A stretch of DNA of 64,000 nucleotides from Nitrososphaerales archaeon (GCA_030038075.1 JASHPO010000091.1:571-64570), one strand, 5' to 3'; counted from the first letter of the stretch, positions 32,941 to 48,447 are shown. The notes: generated by a model from the letters alone, not told the origin. Translations and numbers: made by a program.

Positions 32941-33117
32941 AAGCTATAGGCCTGTTTGCTTCTAGCCCTCAACCATCCTTATTTTAACTAGCTCATGAGG
33001 GCCAAAATCCTTCAAATCAAGCGATTACGTTTATCTCAGAGCAAGAAATTGGGCCGAACTCAAAAATTCTTATACTCATTACCGATCAAGAAATATTTCT
33101 GGCAGAGAGAGCGGTAC

Positions 33118-34293
33118 GTGCAAAAAATCTACTTTGCCATTTTTGGCTCGGGACTAGGCCACGTAACTCGAATTCTCGACATTTCCGAGCGGCTCAGGAA
33201 CTACGGGGACAGCCAGTTCTGCTACTCTTCATTTGATCAAGCACTGAAGTACCTGGATGCGCACAAAGACTCTTCCAGCGTGGTCGAAAGCCCCAGGCTG
33301 GACGTCGAGTGGACTTCCGAAGGCAGCTTTTCTTCCCGGGATGTTCTTCCCCGATTTCCATTCATGTTCAATTCCTTTCTGAGGCAGGTTGCTTTCGAAG
33401 CAGAAAGTCTCGTAAAGTTTAATCCGAAACTTGTAGTATCCGACTCGAGGCTTTCGGCCGTTCTCGCCGCATGGGCCAAGTCCTATCCCGTGATCACAAT
33501 GCTAAACCAATTCAAGGTTACACTGCCGCCGCGTTTCAGCGGAAAGCTTCTCGGCGGCATTTATGAAAGAATTGCAGGAAACGTCCTTGGGCTCTTGTGG
33601 TCTTTGAGCGACAGTGTGCTGATGACGGACCTTCCTCCGCCGTACACGATAGGAGAGGCAAATCTGGAGGGAACCGAAATCTCTAGAATTGTAAAGTACG
33701 TTGGCTTTGTCTCCCCCAGTTTGGGTATGAACGGAGAGAGACTCGAAAAAGCTAGGCGCTCTCTCTCGCTTGATCACAGGCCGTTCATCTTTTTTCAGAT
33801 CAGCGGCCCGGACGCGACGAAGAAAAGATTTGTTGAAGTTGCCCTTCAAGCTAGCGACGAGCTCTCGAAAAGATACAACATCGCAATCTCGATGGGCTAC
33901 TCCGGCGGATCTGTCGAACCGAAGAGACTTGCCAACGGAACGTGGATCTACGACTGGTGTCCTATCAAGGACGAATTGTTCCTCCTGTCGAGCTTGGTCG
34001 TAGCGAGATCTGGCCACAGGACGATAGGAGAGTGCATCGACGCCGGCAAGCCAGCGGTGCTCGTCCCGATTCACAATCACTCTGAGCAGATCGGAAACGC
34101 CGACAAATTTCGCAGACTGGGTCTGGGTATCGACCTCAGATCTGAGCGCATGACTACGGAAAGATTGATCGAATGCGTGGATGCGTGCATAAATGATTCC
34201 AGATACAAAGAGAACATTGAAAAAATCAGAGCCATCTCGGAGAAATACAACGGAATCGAAAGAAGCGTCGAAATAATCAAGTCATATTCGTAG
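33118..34293 (+). CDS. MurG-like / GT28 C-terminal domain glycosyltransferase
   Basis: GTG 33118 gives MQKIYFAIFGSGLGHVTR. The C-terminal ARSGHRTIGECIDAGKPAVLVPIHNHSEQIGNA resembles Glyco_tran_28_C. Confidence 0.7.
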   Translation: MQKIYFAIFGSGLGHVTRILDISERLRNYGDSQFCYSSFDQALKYLDAHKDSSSVVESPRLDVEWTSEGSFSSRDVLPRFPFMFNSFLRQVAFEAESLVKFNPKLVVSDSRLSAVLAAWAKSYPVITMLNQFKVTLPPRFSGKLLGGIYERIAGNVLGLLWSLSDSVLMTDLPPPYTIGEANLEGTEISRIVKYVGFVSPSLGMNGERLEKARRSLSLDHRPFIFFQISGPDATKKRFVEVALQASDELSKRYNIAISMGYSGGSVEPKRLANGTWIYDWCPIKDELFLLSSLVVARSGHRTIGECIDAGKPAVLVPIHNHSEQIGNADKFRRLGLGIDLRSERMTTERLIECVDACINDSRYKENIEKIRAISEKYNGIERSVEIIKSYS

Positions 34294-34322
34294 AGTATCC
34301 TAACCGCTGATGTCATTCCAGT

Positions 34323-34367
34323 GTTCTAATAATGAGAACAGCCTTGCTATGACGTAGGTTCAAATAA
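34323..34367 (+). promoter_or_regulatory. 45-bp family leader copy 1 (GTTCT-N7-AGAAC ... TTCAAATAA)
   Basis: Inverted repeat at 34323-34339 and a TATA-like end at 34359-34367. The first G is 76 nt upstream of TTG 34399. Confidence 0.6.
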
Positions 34368-34398
34368 GTCAGAGGACATTCCCACTTTGTGTCTTACA

Positions 34399-35850
34399 TT
34401 GGCAAAAGCAAAGAGCGCAATCTCCCTTGGAGTTTCTGCCGTCATTGTTATTGTACTAATCCTCGTAGTAGGTTTTGGAGTATTCCTAAGCAATGACCTC
34501 AATTCAACTAACACAATTACTACCGCTGATTACTCCGGTTCAAGCTCCAGTTCTACCGAGAGTTCCCAGACGGCCACGACGACCATCTTCCTGCCTACCG
34601 AACAAAGCTCATCATCCACGTCTGCATCCGGCCTCAGCCTGGACCTTTTTATTGCGCCGTCAAACGGTTCGCTGGGGGAAGTGATTGAAGTAAATGAAAT
34701 CAACACGCTGGACTCTATTAACAACGTAAGTCTTGCCGATAATTGGCTCTATCCACAATCGTCCCTGGATCCCTATGCTCCTTGCAGCCTAACCGGGGCA
34801 GTAGGCTTTGCGATCTTTCAGGGAAATTATGGCCTGAACAACTACACCCACGCAAGTGCTCTTGCCTTGTACAATACGAGCGATGTCTTTTCTTGCACGA
34901 CAGCGACCTACCAGAACGCCTACTATTCGTTCATGCCGCAAAGTGATCAAGCCAATCTGGTTTATTCGCAGATGGTGATCCCAAGCGCGACCACGACGCT
35001 GTCGCTCTCATTTATCGCGAAGGGATTCTGGACCGGCGGCTCGGCTTCGGGGCAAACTCCGACATTTCACGCGTTTCAAGGCAACTACACGGTACTTGCG
35101 GCAGATGAATGGGGCAAGGTCGTTCTGATTCATTTCACCGCGAGCAGTGCCGGCATTTCCTCAGGAACAACGTCTACGACGGGATATGTTACATCGAACT
35201 CAAGCTCTCCGACAGTTACGACGACAAGCACCGTGAACTGGAATTATGGAATGCTTGCAAATTTGACGTTAAATTCTCCAAAAGTCCTACCGTATATCGA
35301 GAGTGCCTACTCCTACGTTGTCTCGATGTATCCAGATCATTATGGTCCAAACCTTATGACTGTCATTATTGATGTGAACGGTAGCCAGAGTGTAGTAGGA
35401 AACTACACGACAGGTTACACCATAACTTACAGCGGAATTAAGGTACTGAATGCAACTGTTCAATTTATCACGCCCAGCAGTTACTTCTTGGCCGGAGTTG
35501 GTGTCACCAACCTTCCGAACCAAACAGAATCAGTTTCATTTTCATCGCAAGAGCAGCACATAGTCCAGGTCGCGCTGTCGAACAGCACGGTACAGAAGCT
35601 AATGGGCGCTACATCTTCTTACTACGTAGAATATATCGATCAATTTCCGATACAGAATGGCACTTATGGAGGGGATTATTTTGTTTTCTTGTTTCAGATA
35701 AACGGAACGCGAACGATAGGAATATTCGTCAACCCAGGAATTACGGCAGTGGTGAATGCGTACGCCGATACTAGGATTATCACGTTTTGCTATGGTCCCC
35801 TTACTCCAGGTGCATGCTTCACCAGTCCATGGAATGCCACCACCAGTTAG
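34399..35850 (+). CDS. N-terminally anchored, sequon-rich surface protein, leader-family member 1
   Basis: The TTG start is set by alignment with paralogs: MAKAKSAISLGVSAVIVIVLILVVGFGVFL. Ser/Thr linker and many N-x-S/T sequons. The ectodomain is homologous to member 4 (..FQGNYGLNN.. and ..AADEWGKVVLIHFT). Confidence 0.8.
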   Translation: MAKAKSAISLGVSAVIVIVLILVVGFGVFLSNDLNSTNTITTADYSGSSSSSTESSQTATTTIFLPTEQSSSSTSASGLSLDLFIAPSNGSLGEVIEVNEINTLDSINNVSLADNWLYPQSSLDPYAPCSLTGAVGFAIFQGNYGLNNYTHASALALYNTSDVFSCTTATYQNAYYSFMPQSDQANLVYSQMVIPSATTTLSLSFIAKGFWTGGSASGQTPTFHAFQGNYTVLAADEWGKVVLIHFTASSAGISSGTTSTTGYVTSNSSSPTVTTTSTVNWNYGMLANLTLNSPKVLPYIESAYSYVVSMYPDHYGPNLMTVIIDVNGSQSVVGNYTTGYTITYSGIKVLNATVQFITPSSYFLAGVGVTNLPNQTESVSFSSQEQHIVQVALSNSTVQKLMGATSSYYVEYIDQFPIQNGTYGGDYFVFLFQINGTRTIGIFVNPGITAVVNAYADTRIITFCYGPLTPGACFTSPWNATTS

Positions 35851-36156
35851 ATGAAGTAGTCGCACGGCCTCATCAGAGCAAAGAGGGGATTCACAGTACC
35901 AGAGCCAAAAAGATCCATCGGGACAACAATAACATAGCATGCGGCTAGGAGCAAGTAGTCGTCAGTTGGACAAATTGGGCTATCTCTGAATCGGCAGTGG
36001 CGGCTGCCTTTCTGCCTCTCTCAATTGCGGATTCGTTAGGAAATGATGGAGGCGGCAGATTCGCAGAGGGAGGACGTATCCTTGTCCTGTAGTGTGAAAC
36101 TGAAAGCCGTTGCTTTGTTTTTACCAATGAAAGACAGCGTCAATGATTTTGCTTAT

Positions 36157-36747
36157 CTACGACCATGTGCCCTGGAAGCCGAAGTACGCGTCGCTGTCTG
36201 CAGGATACGAGCCATAGCTGTCGACAAGTTTAACCTCAAAGCCCCCCTCGGCAGCCGACCCGCTGGCCTGATGGGAGAGCACTGACGTCTGGACTGTGCA
36301 GGTAGCGGAAACCTGTGAGTTGGCGGCAATGCCTGCTGTCGCTGGGCCGCCCATAGTACCATTGACAGCGACTGATTCGGTGACCCTACCGCTGGAGCCA
36401 GCAATTACCGTGATCTCGCACGCTACCAAGTCTAGGGATGCGTTGCTGTTGTTGACTATCGTCATCGTACAGACGCCGCTCGCAAGAGAACAGGAGACGT
36501 TGCTTGCTGATAGTTCACCCAACAGGAGTGCAGGGGGAGATATGGGACCGCTGGAATTTCCTGTAGGCGAACCTGTGGCCGTGATGGTTGTTGTTATTCC
36601 GCCTAAAGTATTGCTTACGGTTCCTGAACTAACAGAAGCTGTACTGTTCTGCTGCTGAGGCAAATAGACTATGCCCAAGCCCAAGCCAAGTCCAACTATT
36701 ATCGCCAAAGCCGATCCAAGCACTATTTGTCGTCTGTATTCTGACAA
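36157..36747 (-). CDS. N-terminally anchored secreted protein
   Basis: 196 aa with anchor RRQIVLGSALAIIVGLGLGLGIVYL and a Ser/Thr/Gly-rich ectodomain. It is divergent from a wHTH-TM regulator gene. Confidence 0.65.
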   Translation of the reverse strand: MSEYRRQIVLGSALAIIVGLGLGLGIVYLPQQQNSTASVSSGTVSNTLGGITTTITATGSPTGNSSGPISPPALLLGELSASNVSCSLASGVCTMTIVNNSNASLDLVACEITVIAGSSGRVTESVAVNGTMGGPATAGIAANSQVSATCTVQTSVLSHQASGSAAEGGFEVKLVDSYGSYPADSDAYFGFQGTWS

Positions 36748-36826
36748 TTTTGATTTTAACCGTCTGGAGTGATAATGGACTAGTCAGATACTTAGCTCTA
36801 CGTTTTCGGATGTGCTTCACATGGTC

Positions 36827-36844
36827 TATACTAACTTTAGTATA
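36827..36844. promoter_or_regulatory. perfect inverted repeat TATACTAA-CT-TTAGTATA in a divergent intergenic region
   Basis: Read directly. A third half-site, TTAGTATA, lies at 36870-36877. The site sits between the starts at 36747 (-) and 36947 (+). Confidence 0.45.
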
Positions 36845-36946
36845 GGAATTCCAGCGTCTTATGCTACTTTTAGTATAACAAAAGCCATACTTAATCGGCA
36901 ATGGTTGTCATGGGCGAACCTACCTGAAACTTATCGCTAGGGAACG

Positions 36947-37408
36947 ATGACGATAGAAGTGGCGAAACCAACCGATAACAAAGAGAAGGCTGCAGATTCC
37001 ACATCTGTCTTGTCGGGAACGACCTTACGGGTCTATCGATTCCTATACAGGGAAGGAAGACCTACAAACATTCATGATGTACAGAGAGGTCTCGGCCTCA
37101 GTTCTGCCTCTGTCGCGCAGTACCACTTGAAGAAGCTTCTCCAAGCGGGTCTTGTCAAGGAGCAGAACGAGGGATACGTTGTTGATAGGATGGTCTTTGA
37201 GAACATGATCAGAATCAGGCGTGCAGTTATTCCCTTCCAAATTGCTTATGCGGTCTTCTTTGGAACGCTACTTGCTGTCCTGCTAATATTTTTGAGGAAC
37301 ACAAGTCAGATAAGTTCCGTCTTTCTCTTTGCCCTTACCGTGAATGTTTCTGCATTGGTTCTCTTTAGTTTCGAGACTTTGAGAAGCTTTAAACAGCGAT
37401 CAATCTAG
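36947..37408 (+). CDS. membrane-anchored winged-helix DNA-binding protein (wHTH plus 2 TM)
   Basis: 153 aa with GTTLRVYRFLYR..VQRGLGLSSASVAQYHLKKLLQAGL followed by two TM helices. Paralog of 28124..28552. Confidence 0.65.
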   Translation: MTIEVAKPTDNKEKAADSTSVLSGTTLRVYRFLYREGRPTNIHDVQRGLGLSSASVAQYHLKKLLQAGLVKEQNEGYVVDRMVFENMIRIRRAVIPFQIAYAVFFGTLLAVLLIFLRNTSQISSVFLFALTVNVSALVLFSFETLRSFKQRSI

Positions 37409-37618
37409 CTTCATCAAGCCTTGTTCTAAGTCAGCCAGAACAGGCGGCATTATTTTTCATAGTTCGCTTGCACTCGATAAGTGTCCAAATCCATAACGTA
37501 TGGATATTAAGGTCGTATTGGGGAAAAAGGTTGATAGACAAACAGATGCCCACTCAGTTTGAATAGATAACAGAAAACAGAGACCACCCCGCGGGACGAA
37601 GCAATCGGAAAGATTCTC

Positions 37619-37939
37619 ATGAAGCGTTATCCTGGAAGGCGAGCGGAACTCGTCGTTTTCGCAACAACATTGCTCGCGACTCAGAACGTCGATTTCGATT
37701 ATTTGCTAAACCATGCGAAGGAACAAGGGTTGGAGAACAAAGTACTTGCGATTCTCTTGGAGATCGACAAAACACTTGCTTTCGCGAACCCTGACGTAGA
37801 AGACGTTCGAACGCTACAAGCTGAAAAATTGTACCAACAAGTGTGTCGGCGACTGCTCAAGTCGATCCAGCGAATTCAATTGGCCAATAAGAAACATGTA
37901 ATAACAATATACCAAAGTCCAAACGAAATAGTCGAGTAG
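37619..37939 (+). CDS. hypothetical protein
   Basis: 106-aa ORF with helical composition. No motif recognised. Confidence 0.4.
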   Translation: MKRYPGRRAELVVFATTLLATQNVDFDYLLNHAKEQGLENKVLAILLEIDKTLAFANPDVEDVRTLQAEKLYQQVCRRLLKSIQRIQLANKKHVITIYQSPNEIVE

Positions 37940-38081
37940 GCCGGAAAGCAACTTGGAATAAGAGGCTAAGACAGACCTGCCATAGAGGCTCGTAAGAGTA
38001 TCTACTTAGTTTGAATCGGGGATATTTTGTTACTTCGGGTATGAAACCTTAATAATGGGGACAACCGTCTAAATTGGGGAA

Positions 38082-38333
38082 ATGGCCCAGGTCACAAAAG
38101 TCGATGATAGGGGCAGAATCAAGCTCTCAAAAAGCATAGCCGAGCCGGGTAATTCTGTCGTAATAATTGATGCCGAGACTTATTTCCTAGGCATTCCAAT
38201 CGAAAGAAATCCCGTACCCGCTTCGGGATCATGGATGAAAACGACTAGAGACGTTCAGTCCTTGAAAAAAATAGCTGAATATGAAGCATCCAAAGATGCA
38301 TTAGCCAGAGCCAAGCACCATAAACAAATTTAG
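38082..38333 (+). CDS. vapB: AbrB/SpoVT-type antitoxin VapB
   Basis: 83 aa with VTKVDDRGRIKLSKSI, a swapped-hairpin-like N-terminus. It sits directly upstream of a PIN gene. Confidence 0.65.
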   Translation: MAQVTKVDDRGRIKLSKSIAEPGNSVVIIDAETYFLGIPIERNPVPASGSWMKTTRDVQSLKKIAEYEASKDALARAKHHKQI

Positions 38334-38355
38334 CTCACCTGATCGATCTGAGAAA

Positions 38356-38775
38356 TTGCTTCTAGAAAGCGATGTTCTATTCGCGCACATTAAGGAAACT
38401 GATTGGCTGAAGAAAGATGCGGATCGACTACTTTCAGAGGTTGAGAGGGGTAGTTTCGGCACAATATATGCGAGTCGGGAAACACTCCATGAACTATACT
38501 ACCTCTCCCCGAAAGTTGGCTGGAAGCCTCAGGAGGCTCTTTCCAAGATAGCTTCTCTAACCCAAATCAAAAATTTATCCTGGCCTCCAACTACAACAGA
38601 TGTTGATCTTCTAGCCCTTTCCCTACTTTCGACTTATGATATTTCGTCAATTTTTGATGCATATCATGCCGCTGCTTGTTTGTTAAACGATCCTGAACAC
38701 ATCATAGTTTCAACCGACGATGTCTATGATAAGATAAAGAATCTTACAAGAGTAGAACCCAAGTCGGTTCATTGA
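38356..38775 (+). CDS. vapC: PIN-domain toxin VapC
   Basis: 139 aa with LLESDVLFAH at the N-terminus and IFDAYHAA later. Operon with 38082..38333. Confidence 0.7.
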   Translation: MLLESDVLFAHIKETDWLKKDADRLLSEVERGSFGTIYASRETLHELYYLSPKVGWKPQEALSKIASLTQIKNLSWPPTTTDVDLLALSLLSTYDISSIFDAYHAAACLLNDPEHIIVSTDDVYDKIKNLTRVEPKSVH

Positions 38776-38978
38776 AACAGTCGGGTCCTGATTTGAGCAA
38801 AGTCGAAGAGTTTGCGAACAAATTTCAGTTAGAAGAAAAAATAATCGAGAACTTGAAAGCCCTTCGTCGACGCAGAATCAAGATTAACAATTCGGACAAG
38901 CTGTCATTATTTCATAAGAATCGTGATCTGAAGAACCAATTTCAAAGTACATTTGAGCGCAACGACATATTTCGATAG
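38772..38978 (+). CDS. hypothetical small protein
   Basis: 68-aa ORF overlapping the VapC stop. Lys/Asn-rich and weakly supported. Confidence 0.25.
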   Translation: MKQSGPDLSKVEEFANKFQLEEKIIENLKALRRRRIKINNSDKLSLFHKNRDLKNQFQSTFERNDIFR

Positions 38979-39022
38979 ACTTTTTCTTGCTGACAAAATT
39001 GCGAGGGGCTGTTGAGGAACAT

Positions 39023-39067
39023 GTTCTAATTTCCAGAACAGTTCTGCTATTGCATATACTCAAATAA
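39023..39067 (+). promoter_or_regulatory. 45-bp family leader copy 2
   Basis: Sequence GTTCTAATTTCCAGAACAGTTCTGCTATTGCATATACTCAAATAA, 77 nt upstream of TTG 39100. Confidence 0.6.
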
Positions 39068-39099
39068 GCCTGAGCTGATTTTGATAACTGTTACCCGAA

Positions 39100-40017
39100 T
39101 TGGCAAAAGCAAACGAAGCAATCTCTACGGGAGTATCTGCACTTATTGTCATTGTAATAGTTCTCATTGTTGGATTCGGAGTCTATCTCGATGCTACCAT
39201 CAACACCGCCAGCACGAGTAGCGTCAGTAATGGAAGTTCCAAGACCGCAACCATTAATTCGACTTTTAGTGCGAACAACACAGAAACAGAAAGCCCAGTT
39301 AGTAACTACACTGCGACGACGGCTACTGTCGTCACTTCAGAAACTCCTCCATGCACTCCTTCCAGTGCATATATTTCGACATCTACTTTATCTGAGCAGT
39401 CTAGTATAACAACAGTTCAGGTGGCATATGATGGCACGACATGTAATTTCGGAAATAGTTTGTTTGAACCTCCCTCGGCAATCCTAATTCCCGCAAATAC
39501 TCTCGTCTGGACAAACTTCCAATTGCAAGTTAATAACAGCTATTTTGTTAATGCTGCAATTCATTTCTTACCTTTCCCTGCTGTAGTAGGCGCTAACATA
39601 ACCGTGGCTGTTTATTTGAATGACATTCTCAACTCGAGCTCGACAACACCAGTAACTCAGTTGCCGAATGCGGTAACCAATTCTTCATTGATCCCCACAT
39701 CTAACTCTTCAAATTCGATTTTCGCGCTAACGGGCGTGACTCCAACTGGGGGAGTAGGCATGCAAACAGGATCCGCGGTAAATCTCAACGGCACGACTAT
39801 CACTATTGCCATTCTAAGTGACAAGCCTCTCTGGCTTTCCGGTTGGACTCCAGAAGATATGTCAAAGGGCACGGGTGCGCAATTTGGACAATCAACAGGG
39901 CAGCTCAGTGGCACCTACGAATGGCCTGACTCTGGATTATCTCTTCCCAATTCATTACCGCAACCAACAACCAAGTTGACCTTTGAACTTCAGATTTCAG
40001 GGGATTACTTTTCATAA
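39100..40017 (+). CDS. N-terminally anchored surface protein, leader-family member 2
   Basis: 305 aa with TTG start and MAKANEAISTGVSALIVIVIVLIVGFGVYL. Ser/Thr-rich with many sequons. The ectodomain is unrelated to members 1 and 4. Confidence 0.8.
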   Translation: MAKANEAISTGVSALIVIVIVLIVGFGVYLDATINTASTSSVSNGSSKTATINSTFSANNTETESPVSNYTATTATVVTSETPPCTPSSAYISTSTLSEQSSITTVQVAYDGTTCNFGNSLFEPPSAILIPANTLVWTNFQLQVNNSYFVNAAIHFLPFPAVVGANITVAVYLNDILNSSSTTPVTQLPNAVTNSSLIPTSNSSNSIFALTGVTPTGGVGMQTGSAVNLNGTTITIAILSDKPLWLSGWTPEDMSKGTGAQFGQSTGQLSGTYEWPDSGLSLPNSLPQPTTKLTFELQISGDYFS

Positions 40018-40193
40018 AAAGTGTCGATTACTTCGGCGTCACCTTTGAAACCCTTCGTGCTCTGACTGTGTCAACAATGAGAAATTCCAAAGAATAGTGA
40101 ATCCGTTGTAAACTTCAGAAGCGGTCAGCCCGCCAATTCCGAAATCCCTTTGTTCGTTGGGTAATTTTTATATTACCATCTGTGTATTACCAT

Positions 40194-40460
40194 ATGAACA
40201 TGGCCGAAGTCGTAAGTATCAAAGTCGACAAGAAGACAAAAGAGAGAATGCAGCGGTTCTCGAACATAAACTGGAGCGACACCATTCGCAATGCTATACG
40301 AAGTAGATTGGAGGAAGAGGAATTGAAGGACCGAAGAAACTTGGACCTGAAGGAGTTAGACGAAGCTTCCAAAATTTCAGACTCTATACGTAGGCCTTCT
40401 GCTCTTGGCTGGAATTCAACGGCGGAAATAAGGAAATGGAGAGACGCGAGAAAGAGGTAA
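40194..40460 (+). CDS. vapB: ribbon-helix-helix-like antitoxin VapB
   Basis: The MNMAEVVSIKVDKKTKERMQRF.. N-terminus is followed by a charged tail ending EIRKWRDARKR. It overlaps the downstream PIN gene. Confidence 0.6.
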   Translation: MNMAEVVSIKVDKKTKERMQRFSNINWSDTIRNAIRSRLEEEELKDRRNLDLKELDEASKISDSIRRPSALGWNSTAEIRKWRDARKR

Positions 40461-40867
40461 TCGTCGTTGACGCCTCGGTGATCGTGAAATGGTTTGTCGA
40501 AGAGGATTATACGAGGCATGCGCTCAGGATGCGGGATGACTACAAGAAGGGAATCATAGACATTTGGTCGACAGAACTGATGCCGTTCGAAGTAATTAAT
40601 GCGCTTCGATATAATTCGGAACTTGGACAGCAAGAGATTGGCAAGGTGACCAAGTCACTTTCTAAATTCAAGATTGCCCTTTATCCATTGTTGAAGGAGC
40701 TCGGCGATTTGAGTATTGAGCTCGCACTAAAATACGGCTTGACAATCTATGACTCTTCTTACTTGGCACTCGGTCGGACATTTGATAAAGCACTGTACAC
40801 GGCCGATGAAAAGATGATGTCGAAGATCTCAGGCAAAGAGAGAGTAACCCACCTGAAAGAATATTGA
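40436..40867 (+). CDS. vapC: PIN-domain toxin VapC
   Basis: 143 aa with VIVVDASVIVKWF and IYDSSYLALG, the classic PIN acidic positions. Confidence 0.85.
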   Translation: MERREKEVIVVDASVIVKWFVEEDYTRHALRMRDDYKKGIIDIWSTELMPFEVINALRYNSELGQQEIGKVTKSLSKFKIALYPLLKELGDLSIELALKYGLTIYDSSYLALGRTFDKALYTADEKMMSKISGKERVTHLKEY

Positions 40868-40929
40868 TTTCGCTCCCGCTAACAGGAACGGTATCACTGA
40901 AAGTGAGTTCTAACAGGATATGCTCTGAC

Positions 40930-41280
40930 TCATTGTCGTGGCGGAATACAAGTCATTGCTATGTCTGTTACTGTGGTCACAAGACTAGATGGATTGTAAT
41001 ATGACAGGCTCGTCTGATTTGAAGTTGTCACGCATGTTGGGTCATACTGGTAGACCTAGACTCCTTGCTTGGTTATGGTCAACACGGCGTAGGTCTGAAT
41101 TGAAACAATGGTTACGCTTGTTGTTTCCGTCTGCGTAGAACCTGTGAGAGTTTGAGTTACGATCTAATTCTTTCCAGAAGAGACCGCGTATCCAATAGAG
41201 GCTCCTGGCCCCAAAGCGATTAGAATGAACACAACTGAAACAAGAAGCATTGTGCGAGGCGACAAGTTAGGATTTCTCAC
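40930..41280 (-). pseudogene. anchor-type secreted protein gene interrupted by two in-frame TAG codons
   Basis: Hand RC translation gives VRNPNLSPRTMLLVSVVFILIALGPGASIGYAVSSGKN*IVTQTLTGSTQTETTSVTIVSIQTYAVLTITKQGV*VYQYDPTCVTTSNQTSLSYYNPSSLVTTVTDIAMTCIPPRQ*. The TAG codons are at 41164-41166 and 41056-41058 (complement). Confidence 0.55.
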
Positions 41281-41327
41281 CGATTATTTTCGGAACTGTA
41301 AAGATAAATTGTCGTCTGGAGGCAACT

Positions 41328-41372
41328 GTTCTAATCATCAGAACAAGTTTGCTATTGCATATTCTCAAATAC
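41328..41372 (+). promoter_or_regulatory. 45-bp family leader copy 3
   Basis: Sequence GTTCTAATCATCAGAACAAGTTTGCTATTGCATATTCTCAAATAC, 75 nt upstream of TTG 41403. Confidence 0.6.
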
Positions 41373-41402
41373 GACTGACGGCTTTTCGAATATTGTCTTA
41401 CA

Positions 41403-41981
41403 TTGGCAAAAGCACGCAGAGCAATCTCGCTTAGAGTTTCAGTGATAGTTGTCATCGCGCTAATTCTGGTAGTCGGTTTCGGAGTTTATCTCAACGATAC
41501 ATTCAACACCTCAAACACTGCTACGAGCGTTTTTGCTAGTAATACCAGTTCCTCAACATCGAGTGGTAGCGCATCCGTTATTACCACTCAAAACACTACA
41601 TCCAAGATCATTCTCTCTCAAGGAACGACCTATCAGGTACAATCGAGCTACGATTGCGTGGCCGGTCATTTTGCACAGCCGTTCAACATAACCACAATTT
41701 CCTACCTTGAGGGCGGAATAAACGTGACAAATCCAGGAGTCACGGTTTATGTTTCAACTACTCAGCAAGCTCAGACGACCAACTTGGGTCACCCAATCCA
41801 GTGGGCCTATTCTGCAAATGTGACAAATTCGACAACGTTCAAGGTTATTCTCCCTTCAGGGTCCTACGTCCTGTGGATCGAAGGCGCAGACATGGGATGC
41901 GGGGCGACGATTGTCACGCCGCTCGAACAGTTGACTGTGGTCACAGTAACCCAGGCCATCATGGTCACACCCGAATCTTAG
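41403..41981 (+). CDS. N-terminally anchored surface protein, leader-family member 3
   Basis: 192 aa with TTG start and MAKARRAISLRVSVIVVIALILVVGFGVYL. Small distinct ectodomain. Confidence 0.8.
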   Translation: MAKARRAISLRVSVIVVIALILVVGFGVYLNDTFNTSNTATSVFASNTSSSTSSGSASVITTQNTTSKIILSQGTTYQVQSSYDCVAGHFAQPFNITTISYLEGGINVTNPGVTVYVSTTQQAQTTNLGHPIQWAYSANVTNSTTFKVILPSGSYVLWIEGADMGCGATIVTPLEQLTVVTVTQAIMVTPES

Positions 41982-42002
41982 ATCGTTCTGAACAGCCCAG
42001 TT

Positions 42003-42045
42003 GTTTTAATCATCAGAAGTCTCGCTATTGCGTATTCCCAAATAA
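42003..42045 (+). promoter_or_regulatory. orphan, degenerate family leader copy with no downstream family gene
   Basis: Sequence GTTTTAATCATCAGAAGTCTCGCTATTGCGTATTCCCAAATAA. Both half-sites are mutated and the copy is 2 nt shorter. It is followed 22 nt later by the 3' end of a convergent vapC. Confidence 0.55.
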
Positions 42046-42066
42046 CGGCAAGACAGAGTATGCCTT

Positions 42067-42567
42067 CTATTGAGATCCCAATACAATCAACTTAACCTCA
42101 TGATCTCCAAGAAGTCTTTCAGCTTTTGAAAAGTCGGAGTCCGATGTGAGAAGTGATTCAATGTTGAAACCTCTATTTTTCAAGGAGATCAAATGAGCAA
42201 TGTGGAGCAAATCTAGACTCCTGAGCTTGACATCGGAGGCTAGAGCAAGACAGGAGCCAGATTCCAAATCAACCTTCCCAAACGGCGTCGCCACTTGCTC
42301 GACTGCAGGAGGTAGGAGTTTCACATCGTACTTTGACATCAAATGAACTAGATATGCCAATAGTACCGTGGAAGGTTGGACATCTTCGACCGGAACCGCG
42401 GAGATTAGCTCTGGCTTCCGCGAAATAGACGCTGCTAACTCGACGAGAAAGAGCTCTGATACTACTTTTTCTCTGGTTCTGGCCAAGAGCGTGGCAGCTT
42501 CTCTGCTCCTTTGGCGCGTTGACGTATCCATGGCAGCAATTACCAGACTCGTGTCGATGTAATTCAT
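42067..42567 (-). CDS. vapC: PIN-domain toxin VapC
   Basis: 166 aa with MNYIDTSLVIAAMD at the N-terminus and LLTSDSDF at the C-terminal motif. 4-nt overlap with the upstream antitoxin. Confidence 0.75.
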   Translation of the reverse strand: MNYIDTSLVIAAMDTSTRQRSREAATLLARTREKVVSELFLVELAASISRKPELISAVPVEDVQPSTVLLAYLVHLMSKYDVKLLPPAVEQVATPFGKVDLESGSCLALASDVKLRSLDLLHIAHLISLKNRGFNIESLLTSDSDFSKAERLLGDHEVKLIVLGSQ

Positions 42568-42800
42568 CTGAATTCCCTATCCAGTTTGACCCCAGCGAAA
42601 TTCAATTTGCCAGCAGAGTCCAAATTTTGGATGATTTTGACTAGCTTACCAAGCTGTTTGAGTTCTTCTTGAGAGTCTAGCCCTCTCTTCATCAATTCTC
42701 GAATTGCTTCACTTCTGTTGGAATATAGCCCGGTCTTCACGAATAGGTCGATGGTCTCCAGAGTTTCTCGATTTAGCCTCACAGGAATAGTTTCAGTCAT
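42564..42800 (-). CDS. vapB: ribbon-helix-helix (CopG-like) antitoxin VapB
   Basis: 78 aa with IPVRLNRETLETIDLFVKTGLYSNRSEAIRELMKRG, an RHH pattern. Confidence 0.75.
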   Translation of the reverse strand: MTETIPVRLNRETLETIDLFVKTGLYSNRSEAIRELMKRGLDSQEELKQLGKLVKIIQNLDSAGKLNFAGVKLDREFR

Positions 42801-43100
42801 TTTATATACGTATGCGAATACGTATATAAAAGATAAGCGATATTCTTTATGGTCGAGCCTGGCTACTCTATGTCCCGATTAAGAGCTCCCGGCTGGCATC
42901 TGTTGGGCAAGCAGTCGTAGAGCGAACCAACCGCGCTCGGAACAGCATGAACAAGAACACCGAGGGCCACGAATGAGGATACGGCTGAACCCCAATCGCA
43001 ACCGCCTACAATGATCCCATTATTGCCTGAATGCCATTCCCATGAATTCGAGTCGTCTCTACGGACCAGGGATTCGAGTGTGAGAAGCCTGGCAATGATC

Positions 43101-43145
43101 GTTCTAATCATCAGAACAGTTCTGCTATTGCATATTCTCAAATAA
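43101..43145 (+). promoter_or_regulatory. 45-bp family leader copy 5
   Basis: Sequence GTTCTAATCATCAGAACAGTTCTGCTATTGCATATTCTCAAATAA, 77 nt upstream of TTG 43178. Confidence 0.6.
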
Positions 43146-43177
43146 TACCATATCGCCTTTGATATTCGTTACCCGAA

Positions 43178-44374
43178 TTGACTATAGCACGCAGAGCTAT
43201 CTCGTTAGGTGTATCTGCCCTGATAGTCATTATTATCATCTTGATAGTCGGTTTTGGTATCTTGCTCAATGCTACTTTCAACACTACAACCACGGCAAGC
43301 ATCTCATCAAGCACTTCGTTCTCGACGCTTGTAAGTAATTCCTCTTTCGCGACAACCCAAAGCTCGAACGCTACTCTTTCCTCGTCATCGATTTCGACGG
43401 CATCAACATTAGTTACAGCGCAAACCACAAACTCGACTTTGGGTCTAGAACTCTCAGTATCTGTAAATTCGACCAGCGTCCCTAGCGAGGACGCAATCCA
43501 GGTATCGGGTTCCATTACAAATACACTATCGACCGTAAACAACTTGACGGCAGCAAACGACTGGCCGATTCAAGGGCCTGCTGGTCTGCTCGCGCTACTC
43601 TCTGGGCCCTGTGATCTCGGAAATGGCACAAACAAACTCTATTCCCCTATTGGTTTTGGAGTTTTCGCGGGGTTCTACGGGCTGAACAATATTTCCAGTG
43701 CCGGAAATCCCCTGCCGATATGGGCATTCATTACGTGTCCTGCTGATTTTGCATTCAATGGCTCAAGTTTAATCGGTTTGCTTCAGAACATCACGAGCTA
43801 TTCATTCCTCCCAAAGTCTGATAGTGGATACTACTCTGCATACTACTCAGGTTCTGAAGGGTTAGCGAAAGGAGTGTTACAGGCCACAATTGCAGATAGC
43901 GCAACGGTCTCTGCGAGCAACAGCACGGGAACACTTCCACCGCCCTATGATACGCTCGGCTCCTCACTACCTCAGAACTATACTCTGGTTGCCGGTGACG
44001 AGTGGGGTCAAATCGTATTATTGCAATTCACAGTCACTCCATCGAACAATCTCCCAGTTTTCGGCGAGTTTCTTTCATCTCTAGCCTTGGAAGGTTGTTC
44101 GGAAGGCGGCGTCCCTATTCCATGCATCTCATTTCAATTTGCTGGTGCAATCCTTTTCAACTGTGCTCTCGAGGCCGCAACATCCTCTGGTTGTATTGAG
44201 CATCTCAGTTCAGATTTGGGAAACTATACGATCACAACTTGGTATCCTTACGTCGACCAGGCAAACGAACCAACGTCAGCAAATTGCTGGTTCAGCGAGA
44301 GCGGTTATGCTACGCCTCCCTATGGGTACTGTTTCTTGATAAACTCGACAGCATTTGTCTATAGTGTTGTGTAG
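43178..44374 (+). CDS. N-terminally anchored surface protein, leader-family member 4
   Basis: 398 aa with TTG start and MTIARRAISLGVSALIVIIIILIVGFGILL. The ectodomain aligns with member 1 (..FAGFYGLNN.. and ..VAGDEWGQIVLLQFT). Confidence 0.8.
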   Translation: MTIARRAISLGVSALIVIIIILIVGFGILLNATFNTTTTASISSSTSFSTLVSNSSFATTQSSNATLSSSSISTASTLVTAQTTNSTLGLELSVSVNSTSVPSEDAIQVSGSITNTLSTVNNLTAANDWPIQGPAGLLALLSGPCDLGNGTNKLYSPIGFGVFAGFYGLNNISSAGNPLPIWAFITCPADFAFNGSSLIGLLQNITSYSFLPKSDSGYYSAYYSGSEGLAKGVLQATIADSATVSASNSTGTLPPPYDTLGSSLPQNYTLVAGDEWGQIVLLQFTVTPSNNLPVFGEFLSSLALEGCSEGGVPIPCISFQFAGAILFNCALEAATSSGCIEHLSSDLGNYTITTWYPYVDQANEPTSANCWFSESGYATPPYGYCFLINSTAFVYSVV

Positions 44375-44486
44375 TTTGATCTGGTTTGACCTCAACTCGA
44401 ACCAATTTTGGAAAGACAAAAGCAAACCACTATGACGGAAGTAATCACTCTGTGCCACCAACAGACCTATACTAATTCTTCAACCA

Positions 44487-44912
44487 GTGGTTAGCAAGTT
44501 TGCAACTTCAAAAGGCATCACTCACGTTCTTTCAATTGTAATCATAATTGTAATTGTCGCGGTTGCGTTCGGAGGATACTTTTTCGGCTCCGCCAACGTA
44601 TCTACCAATACCACCAAAATCTTCCAGAAAAGCGAAGTTACAGAGACGCTTGTTCAGGTGAGCCAAGTTACAGAAACCAACCCGATGGCTGTCGAAACCA
44701 TCACTGAGGTAGTACTGATATACACCGGAACCAATGCCGGCGAGGGGTTTTGCGAATCAGATGCTCTCAATAATACAAACTGTATAGGCATGTCGATTGT
44801 TAGCGTCACAACGAGCACAACGATGCTTTACATTAATCCGCCAAACGCCGCGCAGGGCTACGTCAACGTTACGGTTACGGAAGTTACTTCGTACAGCTCT
44901 CTTTCCTGTTAG
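44487..44912 (+). CDS. small secreted protein with pilin-like (class III-like) N-terminus
   Basis: 141 aa with GTG start. MVSKFATSKG-ITHVLSIVIIIVIVAVAFGGYFF has a KG followed by a hydrophobic stretch. Thr/Val-rich. Confidence 0.6.
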   Translation: MVSKFATSKGITHVLSIVIIIVIVAVAFGGYFFGSANVSTNTTKIFQKSEVTETLVQVSQVTETNPMAVETITEVVLIYTGTNAGEGFCESDALNNTNCIGMSIVSVTTSTTMLYINPPNAAQGYVNVTVTEVTSYSSLSC

Positions 44913-45108
44913 AACGCATTGACAAACTATACCACAATCACATCAAACACCAACAAGACCACAATTGACTGGTCGTGGACCTGCTCAGGGTGACCGAACC
45001 GATCTGCCATCTTCAAGAGCCATCAGCCCAACACAACAAGTCGGAAGGATTATGCCATTGAGTATTGTTTAATATCGGAAAGTGGTAAGGACTGGTGGAA
45101 ACAATCGG

Positions 45109-45699
45109 ATGAAGAAACGAAACGTATGGATTGCATTGATCACCGCAGCCATCCTAGGTGTCCTCATCTATGCTCCGGTTATACCCATTCCTCCCTTTTC
45201 TAGTGGATTTTCCGGTGTGTACACTCCTCCTCATACTCTTGATTCTGTCGCAATGAAGTTTCTCAACTTTGGCACACAGTATCACGGACCCTATGCACCT
45301 TACTACGCCCATGGAACACTTGAGTTCTGCTTAGTTCAGTATTGTGGTCCTACCCCATTTGGTGCGTTGCTCTGGGCTGATTTCCTCGTCGCAATTGCGG
45401 CAATCGACGTTGGTCTGCTCGTAAGTTTCATTCTGACAAAGAAAGGCTTGACCGGAGCATTGTCCCAACTAGGTTTTGGAGTCCTCGCGGTAATCTCTCC
45501 GGTCCTTGTTCTTTTTCTAGGAATTTCCCCGGTGTGGATGAGCATTAACCGTCTCGTGAAAGAAGAGATCATTGTTACAGGCGCGGTTCTAGTCTTGACT
45601 GCAGTAGCTGAAATATGCTGGTTCAGGAAAAGCAAGCAAAACCAATTCCTCAGGCAGTCAGAGAAACTTGAAAGTGACCATCAAGTACGCGCGCAATGA
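45109..45699 (+). CDS. polytopic membrane protein, unknown function
   Basis: ATG 45109 gives MKKRNVWIALITAAILGVLIY, and several further TM helices follow. Confidence 0.55.
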   Translation: MKKRNVWIALITAAILGVLIYAPVIPIPPFSSGFSGVYTPPHTLDSVAMKFLNFGTQYHGPYAPYYAHGTLEFCLVQYCGPTPFGALLWADFLVAIAAIDVGLLVSFILTKKGLTGALSQLGFGVLAVISPVLVLFLGISPVWMSINRLVKEEIIVTGAVLVLTAVAEICWFRKSKQNQFLRQSEKLESDHQVRAQ

Positions 45700-45805
45700 A
45701 GCCTTAGAGATAGGTAGGAATACGGATTCCTCTGGAATCCTTAAAATGATATTTCTGATGACATAAGTTTCTCATGATATTGGACTGGAGAGCAGTGGGC
45801 TGGAT

Positions 45806-46001
45806 CAATGCGAAACTGCAATCTGAGAAAGTTGCTTTAGTACGCCCTTTTTCTTGATGCCCCAAAGCTCGATTCCCATTACTTCACGTCTCGGTCCAGT
45901 TCAACTATCACATTATCCTCCACTTCCTTCACGCTATCAGAAGGACCCTTCCTGAAATGCGTGTATGGGATGTCCTCTTTGGAATCGTAACTGACTTTCA
46001 T
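45806..46001 (-). pseudogene. DUF2283-like gene with a frameshift
   Basis: MKVSYDSKEDIPYTHFRKGPSDSVKEVEDNVIVELDRDVK* continues in another frame as EVMGIELWGIKKKGVLKQL..*. The joined sequence fits the DUF2283 pattern (..D.DG.VVGIE..). The 196-nt span is not a multiple of 3. Confidence 0.55.
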
Positions 46002-46284
46002 TTAAGGGGACCCAAGACCCAAAGCACCTCCCCACTTTCTTTCTAATAAGCCTGTCAACCTTTCGATGAGCGATAAAACGGTGATAACTCTGTTCGTTTC
46101 TTCGGGCGCATAAACAACTACAAGACTTTTTTTGATCAACCGGTTTCACCGCAACCATGGCGTCCGACTCGATGTCCTTGTAAATGGAATCTGGGCTGGC
46201 TGTACCTGAAATTACGTCCTGCCTTTTCACAATTCGATCCCGCATTTTCTCTGTTGCGTGTCGGCTAAACTCGACTCGATACAA
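46002..46284 (-). pseudogene. DUF4258-like gene with a frameshift at an A7 run
   Basis: The N-terminal half is MYRVEFSRHATEKMRDRIVKRQDV..AVKPVDQKK. After the T7 run at 46127-46133 (A7 on the coding strand), the protein-like frame is SLVVVYAPEETNRVITVLSLIE.., ending at TAA 46002-46004. The frame used in the ORF track turns Cys/Arg/His-rich. Confidence 0.5.
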
Positions 46285-46793
46285 AAGTCACCTTCCGTCT
46301 CCTTTTTGTTTACCTGGAATTGAATGTTCTGAGCATCACGCAAGCCAAGTCCAATAAATGCTCCTGATTCCATATGCCGAGCCTGTTAGATGGATACTCT
46401 ATCACATGAGGCGAGCAGAATTTCCTGTGGTAACCAAAAATGGAATCTTCTGAACCAACCTTCACAACCCCGGGTTTCTAGGGACGATGTCCCATCTAAA
46501 CATGATTGGACGAACTTTGGAAGAGATGATCAACCGTTCAGAATTTGGCCAAGTATTCGTCGCACTGCTTTTTCCGGGTTACAATCAAATGAGCGCGATC
46601 ATTGTATTCATGCGGTCAAACGTGGAACTCGAGGCAGATTCTTCCGAGCATAAGAGTAGCGCTGTTGTTTCGGTCTGTTTTTAATTGTTCCTCTTGGGAG
46701 CTCATTGAGCACGCCCGAACGGGTAACAGTACGTACAGGATAAATCTAAAAGTCGTGGACTCCTGCGCTTGAATTAATGAGGTAGAAACTACA

Positions 46794-47102
46794 ATGATGA
46801 ACGAAGGCTATAGGACATGCTCGGGATGTAATAGAGAGATAATGGTTTCATCCAGAGGTTTATTTTTGCCTCATAAGGACAAGAAAAAGAAAATCGTTTG
46901 CCCCATGTCTGGCAAAGCACCTAACTATGATATATGCGATTTATGCGGAAAGAAAATTGCAAACCCTGACAATGAAACTAGGTATTGTTCAGAAGAATGT
47001 GAGAAAAAAGATTCTCGCCGTCACTTGATGCCTGTTAATCAGGAAATTTCCAAACGAAAAATCAAGTCATTAAAATTTTCAAACCCGCTTTACTTTGATT
47101 GA
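46794..47102 (+). CDS. small Cys-rich (zinc-binding-like) protein
   Basis: 102 aa with CSGC..CPMSG..CDLCG..CSEEC pairs. Confidence 0.45.
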   Translation: MMNEGYRTCSGCNREIMVSSRGLFLPHKDKKKKIVCPMSGKAPNYDICDLCGKKIANPDNETRYCSEECEKKDSRRHLMPVNQEISKRKIKSLKFSNPLYFD

Positions 47103-47119
47103 TGGAAATTATTCCCAAA

Positions 47120-47866
47120 TTATCCAATAGCTGGTTTCAGATAACTCGTCCCGACGAGTTGGGCTAGGAACAAGTCGCTGTCGGTGAAAGCTGGGCAGGA
47201 AGTATTCAGTCCTGAAGAGCCATCTCCGTTTGTCTGCGCAATTCCTATCCCGAACAGTGAGCTACCGCATCTGACGTACTGTGGAAAGAAGTATGAAAAA
47301 ATGAAAGACCACTGAAAGTCGTAGACAACGATTATTGATTCACCAGTCGAATTGAAGAGCGCCTGCTCGGGAAAAGCGTAAACTGCGTCGTATGGATACG
47401 GACCGCCCTGCGATGCATTTCCGAAGCTATCCGTTATGTACATCGATCCGGTAAAGTTTGCATCGAAGCTTCCATTCGTGGTCAGACTAGAGTCATTCTG
47501 CGGATAGTAGGCGTATTTCATGCAGATCTGAGCAAAATTCATCGTGAAATTGCTGATGATAAAGTAGGTTGAGCTGTTCAAATTGAATCCTGATGGATAA
47601 TTTTCTAGGCAGGTCGTGGGAAAATTTGCCGGAAGGGATTGCTTCACGTATTCCGACCCACTCGCAATCTCAGTTACAGTCTTCGTAGAGATGACTGTCT
47701 GTGTGCTCGTGAGGGTGGTCTCGATTGTCGCAACACTTGTTTGCTCGGGAAGTGGAGATGAACTTGAGCTGTATTCGTAAAAAAGGACGCCGAGAGCAGA
47801 AGATAGAACGATTATCGCAAGCACTAGACCGGCAACAACTCCAGAGACACCCGTCTTTGATGCCAA
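47120..47866 (-). CDS. N-terminally anchored secreted protein
   Basis: 248 aa with MASKTGVSGVVAGLVLAIIVLSSALGVLFY, a Ser/Thr linker and sequons. It is divergent from leader copy 6. Confidence 0.65.
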   Translation of the reverse strand: MASKTGVSGVVAGLVLAIIVLSSALGVLFYEYSSSSSPLPEQTSVATIETTLTSTQTVISTKTVTEIASGSEYVKQSLPANFPTTCLENYPSGFNLNSSTYFIISNFTMNFAQICMKYAYYPQNDSSLTTNGSFDANFTGSMYITDSFGNASQGGPYPYDAVYAFPEQALFNSTGESIIVVYDFQWSFIFSYFFPQYVRCGSSLFGIGIAQTNGDGSSGLNTSCPAFTDSDLFLAQLVGTSYLKPAIG

Positions 47867-47919
47867 ACTCGCAACCTTACATCCAGCCGTTGTATATGAG
47901 ACTACCCAACGGCTTGCCT

Positions 47920-47964
47920 GTTCTGATCTTTAGAACACGACCAGAGGATGGTAGTTTCAAATAA
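47920..47964 (+). promoter_or_regulatory. 45-bp family leader copy 6 (diverged)
   Basis: Sequence GTTCTGATCTTTAGAACACGACCAGAGGATGGTAGTTTCAAATAA. It keeps the palindrome and the TATA-like end, and lies 74 nt upstream of TTG 47994. Confidence 0.55.
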
Positions 47965-47993
47965 CACGAATAGTCTTATCAGCATGTCTCTCA

Positions 47994-48447
47994 TTGGCAA
48001 AAGCAAAGAGTACGGTTTCGTTAGCATTTTCTGCAATCATTGTAATTGTACTAATCGCCATAGCAGGCTTTGGGATCTTTCTCGATGTCACTTAAACCGA
48101 AGTGCAACCAATTGCTGTACAACGACTGTCAGCAACGCTCCCAAGCTTCCTCCTCGTCCAATGTGACAACTTCCATAACAACCTGCGTTCAAACTGCTCA
48201 ATCTGGGATTTACGTTTTGGTTCTAAACGATTCTTCAGGTGCGGCACTCGAAGGAGTTCAGATAGCTGGGAATGTCAAGTGGCTCTGCGGTTCTTACGCG
48301 CCACCAGGTTATTTTGTTGCAACACAGAATATCAGCGCAACGAATACTTCTTCCGATGGAACGCTCTTCATTGGTTCTATCGTTGGAAACTATTCACTAA
48401 CTCTTCCGCTGTCGTGTGTTCCTATATCTGAAAGTGGCAAGGACTAG
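47994..48447 (+). pseudogene. leader-family member 5, frameshifted just after the TM anchor
   Basis: TTG 47994 encodes MAKAKSTVSLAFSAIIVIVLIAIAGFGIFLDVT and stops at TAA 48093-48095. The ectodomain (SLKPKCNQ..GIYVLVLNDSSGAALEGVQIAGN..) continues in the +1 frame to 48447. Confidence 0.6.

Follow-up and report, generated by a model that had tools for sequence, protein, structure and literature searches.

In archaea, binding of a factor to a site upstream of the TATA box gives activation of the promoter behind it. The closest functional analogue of the element described here is found in Sulfolobus acidocaldarius, where the promoter of the archaellin gene flaB carries ArnR boxes, 15-bp inverted repeats of the form TCGAC-N5-GTCGA located at -43 to -84 and needed for activation of this surface-structure operon by the membrane-bound helix-turn-helix (HTH) factors ArnR and ArnR1 (PMC6396743). 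Archaeal operators of the Lrp/AsnC and TrmB types are 13-19 bp long, have an A/T-rich centre and bind HTH dimers (PMC6396743). The present element is a 45-bp unit found in several copies within a 64,000-nt stretch of DNA from a Nitrososphaerales archaeon (GCA_030038075.1 JASHPO010000091.1:571-64570; the whole stretch is referred to below as the window). From its sequence it is likely to be a composite archaeal promoter, with a site for a dimeric factor upstream of a weak or specialised TATA box, that would define a cell-surface regulon, the factor being more likely an activator. A factor-binding site beside a TATA box is an ordinary category; no description of this particular motif was found in a full-text literature search.

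As with the ArnR boxes, short half-sites in inverted repeat would lie upstream of the TFB-recognition element (BRE) and TATA box, judging by their placement relative to the start codon, and the targets are cell-surface proteins. The two systems differ in sequence, in spacing and in length (19 bp here, 15 bp for ArnR). ArnR needs two boxes, whereas most loci have a single palindrome here, and ArnR serves one operon, whereas the present element precedes dozens of anchored proteins that are unrelated to one another, in a different phylum. No ArnR-type factor with a HAMP domain was found beside the motif. The Lrp/TrmB operators, e.g. the Ptr2 upstream activating sites and the TGM motif TATCAC-N5-GTGATA, show no sequence resemblance to the element and serve metabolic genes rather than an envelope-protein regulon. 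Nitrososphaerales (Thaumarchaeota) are abundant in soils and peat, yet their transcription regulation and surface-protein biology have hardly been studied; the lineage at hand is largely uncultured. The element would offer a concrete and testable cis-regulatory code with about 100 natural variants in hand. It could serve in finding the cognate factor, in annotating cell-surface regulons in metagenome-assembled genomes (MAGs), in correcting start-codon calls (TTG at a fixed distance) and as a source of regulated promoters for a clade without genetic tools.

The whole window was scanned with the exact pattern GTTCT-N7-AGAAC and then with a profile made from five 45-mers. Exact matches begin at 34323, 39023, 41328, 43101 and 47920, all on the + strand, each running into a common 45-mer with TCAAATA(A/C) at its end. 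With one mismatch tolerated, eight palindrome matches were obtained against 3.0 +/- 2.0 in shuffles, the remaining three being unrelated. On the + strand the profile matched only the five source copies and a degenerate copy at 42003 (expectation value, E = 5e-6). On the minus strand it matched 47936..47893 (E = 1e-5), a seventh promoter arm that reads GTTCTAAAGATCAGAACAGGCAAGCCGTTGGGTAGTCTCATATAC and has its palindrome in common with copy 47920. The 45-mer ends in TCAAATAA in four copies; 41328 has TCAAATAC there and 42003 has CCAAATAA. An initial annotation of this DNA had listed six copies, all keeping the inverted repeat and a TATA-like end. Five intact copies and one decayed copy are confirmed; the palindrome of 42003 is broken (GTTTT...AGAA, 2-bp deletion), and the minus-strand arm had been overlooked. 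The same annotation had placed the first G 74-77 nt before a TTG start in five copies, in agreement with the measured 76, 77, 75, 77 and 74 nt; the distance is 70 nt in the minus-strand arm. Its estimate of about four differences among copies 39023, 41328 and 43101 is correct for both pairs that include 43101 (4 mismatches per 45 positions each), and too low for 39023 against 41328 (8).

The element is itself conserved. Mean pairwise identity among the four intact window copies that precede genes with a MAKA-type N-terminal signal anchor, codon positions being taken from the first 30 anchor codons, is 0.81 across the 45-mer and 0.68 at those of its positions that lie outside the anchors of the later searches. 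The 30 nt ahead of the palindrome give 0.26, and the 12 nt preceding the start codon 0.51. Codon positions 1, 2 and 3 give 0.73, 0.86 and 0.43. The non-coding element is thus better conserved than nearby synonymous sites, and the earlier proposal that it is under a constraint of its own is borne out by comparison with third codon positions and with the upstream flank alike. The window copies are not homogenised, each resembling copies on other contigs as closely as it does its neighbours (anchor-coding identity 66-79%). They are old paralogues and not recent duplicates; recent gene conversion among them was rejected on the same comparison.

Distribution of the element was examined by scanning one genome per prokaryotic species for GTTCT-N7-AGAACA-N14-TA-N3-TCAWATA. 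Seventeen matches were returned, 15 of them in Nitrososphaerales or Nitrososphaerota MAGs; the other two, in an alphaproteobacterium and a Clostridium, are expected chance matches. Scans with a slightly looser pattern gave 96 metagenome stretches, mainly from a few peat and soil sample series, and one match in a viral collection (IMG/VR). A viral or mobile origin was rejected, given the single IMG/VR match and the lack of terminal repeats or target-site duplications around the copies. After removal of duplicates and obvious non-archaeal matches 98 unique instances were left. Downstream of the element, 80 of these have an open reading frame (ORF) with an N-terminal hydrophobic anchor, 8 an ORF without one and 7 no ORF of at least 60 aa, while in 3 the contig end is too near; anchored ORFs therefore make up 80 of 95 evaluable instances (84%). 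The median start of the anchored ORFs is 76 nt past the first G (interquartile range 73-81, n=80). In 88 of the 95 an ORF begins 55-150 nt downstream, as suits a core promoter in intergenic DNA that is oriented toward its gene. Among ORFs of at least 100 aa, an anchor is present in 53 of 62 downstream ORFs against 125 of 315 controls, the other long ORFs of the same contigs (Fisher p = 2e-11). Ser/Thr content of residues 35-100 is 33% in motif-driven and 19% in control ORFs.

By ectodomain, at least 31 groups can be told apart among the downstream proteins, with many unrelated anchors, of types MAKA..., MRNSLIAIAV..., MNRLAGILLIL..., MKKKNANRKALATAVGF... and MSSRRTVILST.... A non-anchored target is a SAM-dependent (S-adenosylmethionine-dependent) methyltransferase by Pfam, and a further one is a polytopic membrane protein of 490-510 aa with a weak, below-cut-off match to a putative glycosyltransferase family; both may be envelope-modifying members of the regulon. 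Placed before start codons and not inside genes, at a fixed distance, and nearly confined to one archaeal order, the motif agrees with the initial annotation in its view of an operator/promoter module driving anchored surface proteins. The narrower tie to a TTG-initiated MAKA family did not stand, as the element also precedes unrelated anchor types, the methyltransferase and the large polytopic protein. The module probably defines a previously undescribed, co-regulated cell-surface gene set in soil and peat Nitrososphaerales, to judge from its sequence context. Two subtypes of the motif can be distinguished at the two further targets: GTTCTGATCTATAGAACG..TGTGCAA..TGTAATCTCAAATAG stands upstream of the methyltransferase and GTTCTAAGCGCGAGAACATCGAATCTGATGCCTAGTCTCAAATAA upstream of the polytopic protein, their loci being L034, L036, L041, L049, L057; L001, L014, L037, L084 (L numbers denote fetched loci).

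The same tabulation bears on passive paralogy, by which the 45-mer would be the duplicated 5' end of one gene family, carried along with an ordinary promoter. In the window the repeat spans the palindrome through about 35 codons, and among 26 unique MAKA-type N-termini in the fetched sequences 23 have the exact motif and 2 have variants (L027, L073), a count biased by the choice of most contigs via the motif. The explanation is nevertheless very improbable, given that the motif stands before many anchors without common ancestry in different MAGs and before at least 31 groups of unrelated ectodomains, and that it is conserved above adjacent synonymous sites between fully randomised flanks.

Position conservation was derived from about 93 unique instances; the search pattern had preset the half-sites with their spacing and most of TCAWATA. 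The architecture, which recurs in 15 Nitrososphaerales genome loci and about 90 metagenome contigs, is TGTTCT-N7-AGAACA, 20 bp, then TCAAATA. Among positions left free by the search, T(-1) is conserved in 76%, A18 in 88%, G19 in 63%, C25 in 74% and A27 in 72%, and inside the palindrome R6/Y12 and A7/T11 form symmetric pairs. This symmetry of search-free positions identifies a true palindrome, TGTTCT-(RAT.ATY)-AGAACA, with an A/T-rich centre. Its form, a 13-19 bp inverted repeat with conserved half-sites and a variable A/T-rich centre, fits that of a dimeric HTH site. A second conserved box occupies positions 23-32 (T23, G24, C25, A27, T28, G30, C31) and is followed by TA, G35 and T36. Information content is about zero over the 20 nt that precede the element, and it is low from the TATA box to the start codon. 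In five loci, namely the window, L028, L062, L073 and L074, two divergent promoters use a single palindrome from which their TATA boxes are equidistant; those of the window are symmetrical about 47920-47936. In L019 two palindromes stand in tandem, 47 bp apart. A further 15 exact palindromes without the exact TATA part occur in 718 kb of fetched archaeal DNA, where about 0.8 would be expected, several of them with near-canonical boxes (TTGAAATA, TCAAGTA) or with a spacing off by 2 bp. The palindrome behaves as a symmetric unit of its own.

Inverted copies 4.7 kb apart (43101 and 47936), variable surface proteins as downstream products and mosaic combinations of anchor and ectodomain could together recall a site of recombination or inversion serving phase or antigenic variation. 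Spacers vary among copies, however, the sole long inverted pair (43101/47936) is 73% identical, and Pfam scans of the window ORFs gave no recombinase or integrase domain among the matches listed. As for a terminator or other RNA hairpin, the stems are weak (-3.4 to -6.3 kcal/mol) with no T-run after them, and the sequence of the stem is conserved, not merely its pairing. Neither role is at all credible for the palindrome. No Rfam family and no tRNA were found in the window. Variable (switching) expression, entertained at first beside co-regulation, found no support.

TCAAATA(A) ends 28-32 nt ahead of the start codon, and by this position TCAAATAA would be the TATA box. Other genes of the window have A/T-rich TATA-like boxes 28-40 nt before ATG, which implies that leaders would be very short genome-wide in these archaea; generic promoters, both on the fetched contigs and before the window genes 9660, 16582, 18461, 23808 and 28920, have boxes of TTTAAAT or TAAATAA type. 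Among the hexamers of 260 control upstream regions, taken from the same contigs, ATTTAA, TTAAAT, TTTAAT and TAAATA are enriched 9-17-fold, and TCAAAT shows no enrichment (5 observed vs 3.2 expected). TCAAATA is not the generic TATA box of these organisms. Thaumarchaeota carry many TFB paralogues, and a TATA variant unlike the generic promoters on the same contigs, together with conservation of positions 33-36 (TA, G/T) and 23-32, would suit a specialised TFB or TBP paralogue reading TAG-N3-TCAAATA, in the manner of a bacterial alternative-sigma regulon, with the palindrome accessory or architectural. Such a paralogue as the main determinant is quite improbable, since it leaves unexplained both the perfectly symmetric 19-bp palindrome 20 bp upstream and the palindromes that have variant TATA boxes or stand in tandem.

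Across contigs, in the window and in loci L023-L118, all but one of the 21 unique MAKA-type genes begin with TTG, which lies 73-77 nt past the first G. ATG replaces it at the same position in the relatives L012, L015 and L024, which share one of two distinct promoter sequences, and among the residues before the membrane segment codon positions 1 and 2 are more conserved than position 3. The replacement by ATG and this coding-type conservation indicate that TTG is a real, conserved start codon. The sequence (T)GTCTTACA is conserved directly before TTG, about where the transcription start would be expected, and no Shine-Dalgarno-like sequence precedes the TTG of MAKA-type genes. A conserved weak start codon on an mRNA that is probably near-leaderless is unusual.

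For the composite promoter the following mechanism can be proposed. The upstream half, the 19-bp palindrome, is the predicted site of a dimeric HTH factor. The downstream half would be a BRE/TATA region, (T/C)TGC.AT.GCATAG.. followed by TCAAATA(A), whose centre is 33 bp past that of the palindrome. Transcription would begin about 25 nt after the TATA box and about 8-10 nt before the start codon, yielding a nearly leaderless mRNA and placing the palindrome at roughly -50 to -68, where archaeal activators such as ArnR also have their sites. The factor would recruit TBP and TFB to a weak core promoter and so turn on the gene set jointly, the predicted targets being surface proteins with an N-terminal anchor, rich in Ser/Thr and N-x-S/T and probably glycosylated, together with a few envelope-related enzymes. 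The module would have multiplied together with the MAKA-type signal anchor, with birth-and-death evolution of a surface-protein island.

A non-consensus core promoter behind an upstream dyad suggests dependence on an activator, in which case weak basal activity would be expected, to be rescued by a consensus TATA (TTTAAATA for TCAAATA). The palindrome and its conservation would suit a repressor equally, i.e. an operator or dual-function site keeping the surface genes off until a signal arrives, and the conserved box at 23-32, lying between palindrome and TATA, could stretch the footprint of a repressor into the BRE. Characterised archaeal repressors, however, usually overlap BRE/TATA or the start, whereas the palindrome stops 19 bp short of the TATA box and overlaps neither BRE/TATA nor the predicted start. 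Bidirectional use at a fixed distance, moreover, resembles an upstream activating site. Repression is therefore unlikely though conceivable, and on this positional argument activation would be the more likely sign.

Several points weigh against the composite-promoter reading. The half-sites and the spacing were preset by the collection scans, and their invariance is by construction; many instances are homologous promoters, and the counts do not represent independent events. The -50 to -68 placement of the palindrome and the reading of TCAAATA as a TATA box were derived from spacing only, and the activator sign from position only. When four loci were fetched through homology to the member-4 ectodomain (see the table), regardless of motif, the motif was present in L019, before the first gene of a tandem pair, and absent from the other three (L018, L020/L021, L022); distant homologues of this ectodomain often do without it. 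Among the 26 MAKA-type genes the one of L018 is without any palindrome and that of L027 has a degenerate copy only. The link between motif and anchored proteins is strong, yet not one-to-one with any protein family. Finally, the palindrome was found within 4 kb in none of five independent loci (L119-L131) with homologues of a local regulator family, the membrane-associated winged-HTH proteins (wHTH-TM).

This last result concerns the local winged-HTH (wHTH) proteins at 28124, 36947 and 50278, which the initial annotation had put forward as possible binders and which proved to be poor candidates. The proteins at 28124 and 36947 are paralogues with HTH_20 and two C-terminal membrane segments each, belonging to the wHTH-TM family of at least 221 members. 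Homologues of 36947 occur in nine motif loci (L061 and L074, with the same promoter and downstream protein, both counted). In L048, L061/L074 and L111 the distance from the end of the 36947-type gene to the palindrome downstream of it is about 25-70 bp; in L108 it is 467 bp. The wHTH-TM gene is always paired with an anchored protein of MSEY[KR]xQI type, motif-adjacent cases included, and with palindromes that differ from the motif. On this constant pairing and the five homologue loci without the palindrome the family was rejected as its binder, as was 50278, which has no homologue in any motif locus. ORF clustering within 4 kb of motifs revealed no recurrent regulator, the most widespread family reaching at most 8 of about 100 loci. 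Lrp-, TrmB- or MarR-type genes were not among the families listed in the Pfam scan of the window, and no Lrp or TrmB gene linked to the motif was found in the fetched loci.

Together the wHTH-TM gene and its MSEY partner seem to form a distinct cassette of two genes housed in the same islands. The cassette lies at 36157-37408 in the window, with a paralogue at 28124-28552, and recurs in L005, L040, L048, L074, L108, L111, L119 and L129. Its wHTH protein has weak Lrs14 and DUF7087 matches besides HTH_20, and its partner, divergent or adjacent, is Ser/Thr-rich and anchored. The wHTH-TM/MSEY intergenic region, 36748-36946, bears repeats of its own, CTATACTAAcTTTAGTATAG and TACTTTTAGTATAA; they are probably the operator of the wHTH-TM factor.

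Mycoplasma vsp/vlp variable lipoproteins are known for a conserved promoter-plus-signal-peptide block joined to divergent ectodomains. The window shares with them an upstream and N-terminal block, clustered genes and decayed copies. It differs in having no homopolymer or invertible switch elements, in the age of the copies and in the occurrence of the cis element on non-homologous anchors as well. A bolder form of the present proposal, rather unlikely as it stands, is that promoter, TTG and signal anchor form a portable 5' expression-and-export cassette that evolution recombines onto unrelated ectodomains; one envelope-sensing factor, acting at the palindrome, would then deploy the entire repertoire of surface glycoproteins, itself in rapid turnover, jointly. 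If true, it would provide for lineage-specific diversification of the cell surface, e.g. against viruses, in uncultured soil and peat Nitrososphaerales, and the conserved weak TTG would be a built-in translational throttle. The element itself would mark islands of fast-evolving surface glycoproteins, likely relevant to interactions with viruses and the environment.

Table. Copies of the 45-bp element in the window and the genes associated with them
Feature	Coordinates	Strand	Description
Promoter module 1	34322..34367	+	T-GTTCTAATAATGAGAAC-A palindrome 34322-34340, TATA-like TCAAATAA 34360-34367; profile E = 7e-11
Promoter module 2	39022..39067	+	Exact palindrome and TCAAATAA; profile match
Promoter module 3	41327..41372	+	Exact palindrome and TCAAATAC; profile match
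Decayed orphan copy	42003..42045	+	GTTTT..AGAA, 2-bp deletion, CCAAATAA; profile E = 5e-6
Promoter module 4	43101..43145	+	Exact palindrome and TCAAATAA; profile match
Bidirectional module	47892..47964	both	Palindrome 47920-47936; TCAAATAA on + strand 47957-47964; TCATATAC on minus strand 47892-47899 (+ coordinates)
Family member 1	34399..35850	+	TTG at 76 nt; MAKAKSAISLGVS... signal anchor, Ser/Thr-rich stalk, ectodomain akin to member 4
Family member 2	39100..40017	+	TTG at +77; MAKANEAISTGVS... anchor; ectodomain unlike other members
Family member 3	41403..41981	+	TTG at +75; MAKARRAISLRVS... anchor; ectodomain grouped with motif-driven protein of L006
Family member 4	43178..44374	+	TTG at +77; MTIARRAISLGVS... 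anchor; beta-sandwich ectodomain
Family member 6, frameshifted	47994..48447	+	TTG 47994; anchor ORF stop TAA 48093-48095; ectodomain 48070-48447 in +1 frame
Seventh motif-driven gene	47120..47866	-	TTG 70 nt from palindrome; MASKTGVSGVVAGLVLAIIVL... anchor, Ser-rich stalk
VapBC-like module after 42003	PIN gene 42067-42567, ribbon-helix-helix (RHH) gene 42564-42800	convergent to 42003 copy	PIN and RHH Pfam matches

Members 1 and 4 are the sole pair with related ectodomains (29.5% identity over 176 aa, E = 1e-9), just as had been noted from the window sequence. The surface proteins of the window, member 1 included, gave nothing meaningful in Pfam or NCBIfam. The member-4 ectodomain has 74 homologues and no Pfam domain; all homologues with a named source are Nitrososphaerales or Nitrososphaerota MAG proteins, and this type of ectodomain is found on various anchors (MAKA-type, MSEY-type and others). 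An AlphaFold2 model of member 4 (mean predicted local distance difference test score, pLDDT, 65.5) has a beta-sandwich core, and Foldseek comparison with the PDB gave generic beta-sandwiches only, with no match at E <= 0.001. The ectodomain of member 6 is 51% identical to an intact motif-driven protein of L056 (E = 1e-22), and the frameshifted gene is either a pseudogene or an assembly error. The product of the minus-strand gene 47866..47120 begins MASKTGVSGVV.... No family gene follows copy 42003, where TTG is kept; downstream of it the convergent VapC-like PIN gene 42567..42067 is entered at its 3' end, and the member once located there was probably destroyed or replaced by a toxin-antitoxin insertion. 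The orphan copy at 42003 and the frameshifted gene behind 47920 suggest that the surface-gene island evolves by birth and death. On this account the window is left with four intact genes and a frameshifted one, besides an orphan relic and a divergent partner.

The MAKA anchor resembles the class III signal peptides of the Sulfolobus bindosome in its short basic N-terminus (...[KR]xA-IS...), hydrophobic stretch and Ser/Thr-rich linker. Unlike bindosome proteins it does not satisfy the strict FlaFind-type pattern: R-A-I-S-L-G misses [KRDE][GA][ALIFQMVED][ILMVTAS]x3 only at the last position (Gly). Prepilin peptidase or pilus genes are absent from the window, and no Pfam pilin family was matched by its surface proteins at E <= 0.1.

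The copies sit in a stretch of lower G+C content (0.43-0.48, vs 0.50-0.53 on either side) bounded by glycosyltransferase genes (31435-34293) and an aconitase gene, which looks like a variable genomic island. Window positions 1-25600 hold housekeeping genes, including methylcitrate-cycle-like genes (PrpD, a phosphoenolpyruvate (PEP) mutase/isocitrate lyase family protein, citrate synthase), an ammonium transporter, P-II proteins and ABC transporters, with no ammonia monooxygenase gene seen there. This content would fit a non-ammonia-oxidising Nitrososphaerales lineage, a question that a 64-kb window is too small to settle. Interspersed among the surface genes are three VapBC-like pairs and one PIN-domain gene (38082-38775, 40182-40867, 42067-42800, 49079-49597). 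A small Cys-rich, zinc-ribbon-like protein with weak Ecl1 and PLATZ Pfam matches is encoded at 46794-47102, adjoining the bidirectional module.

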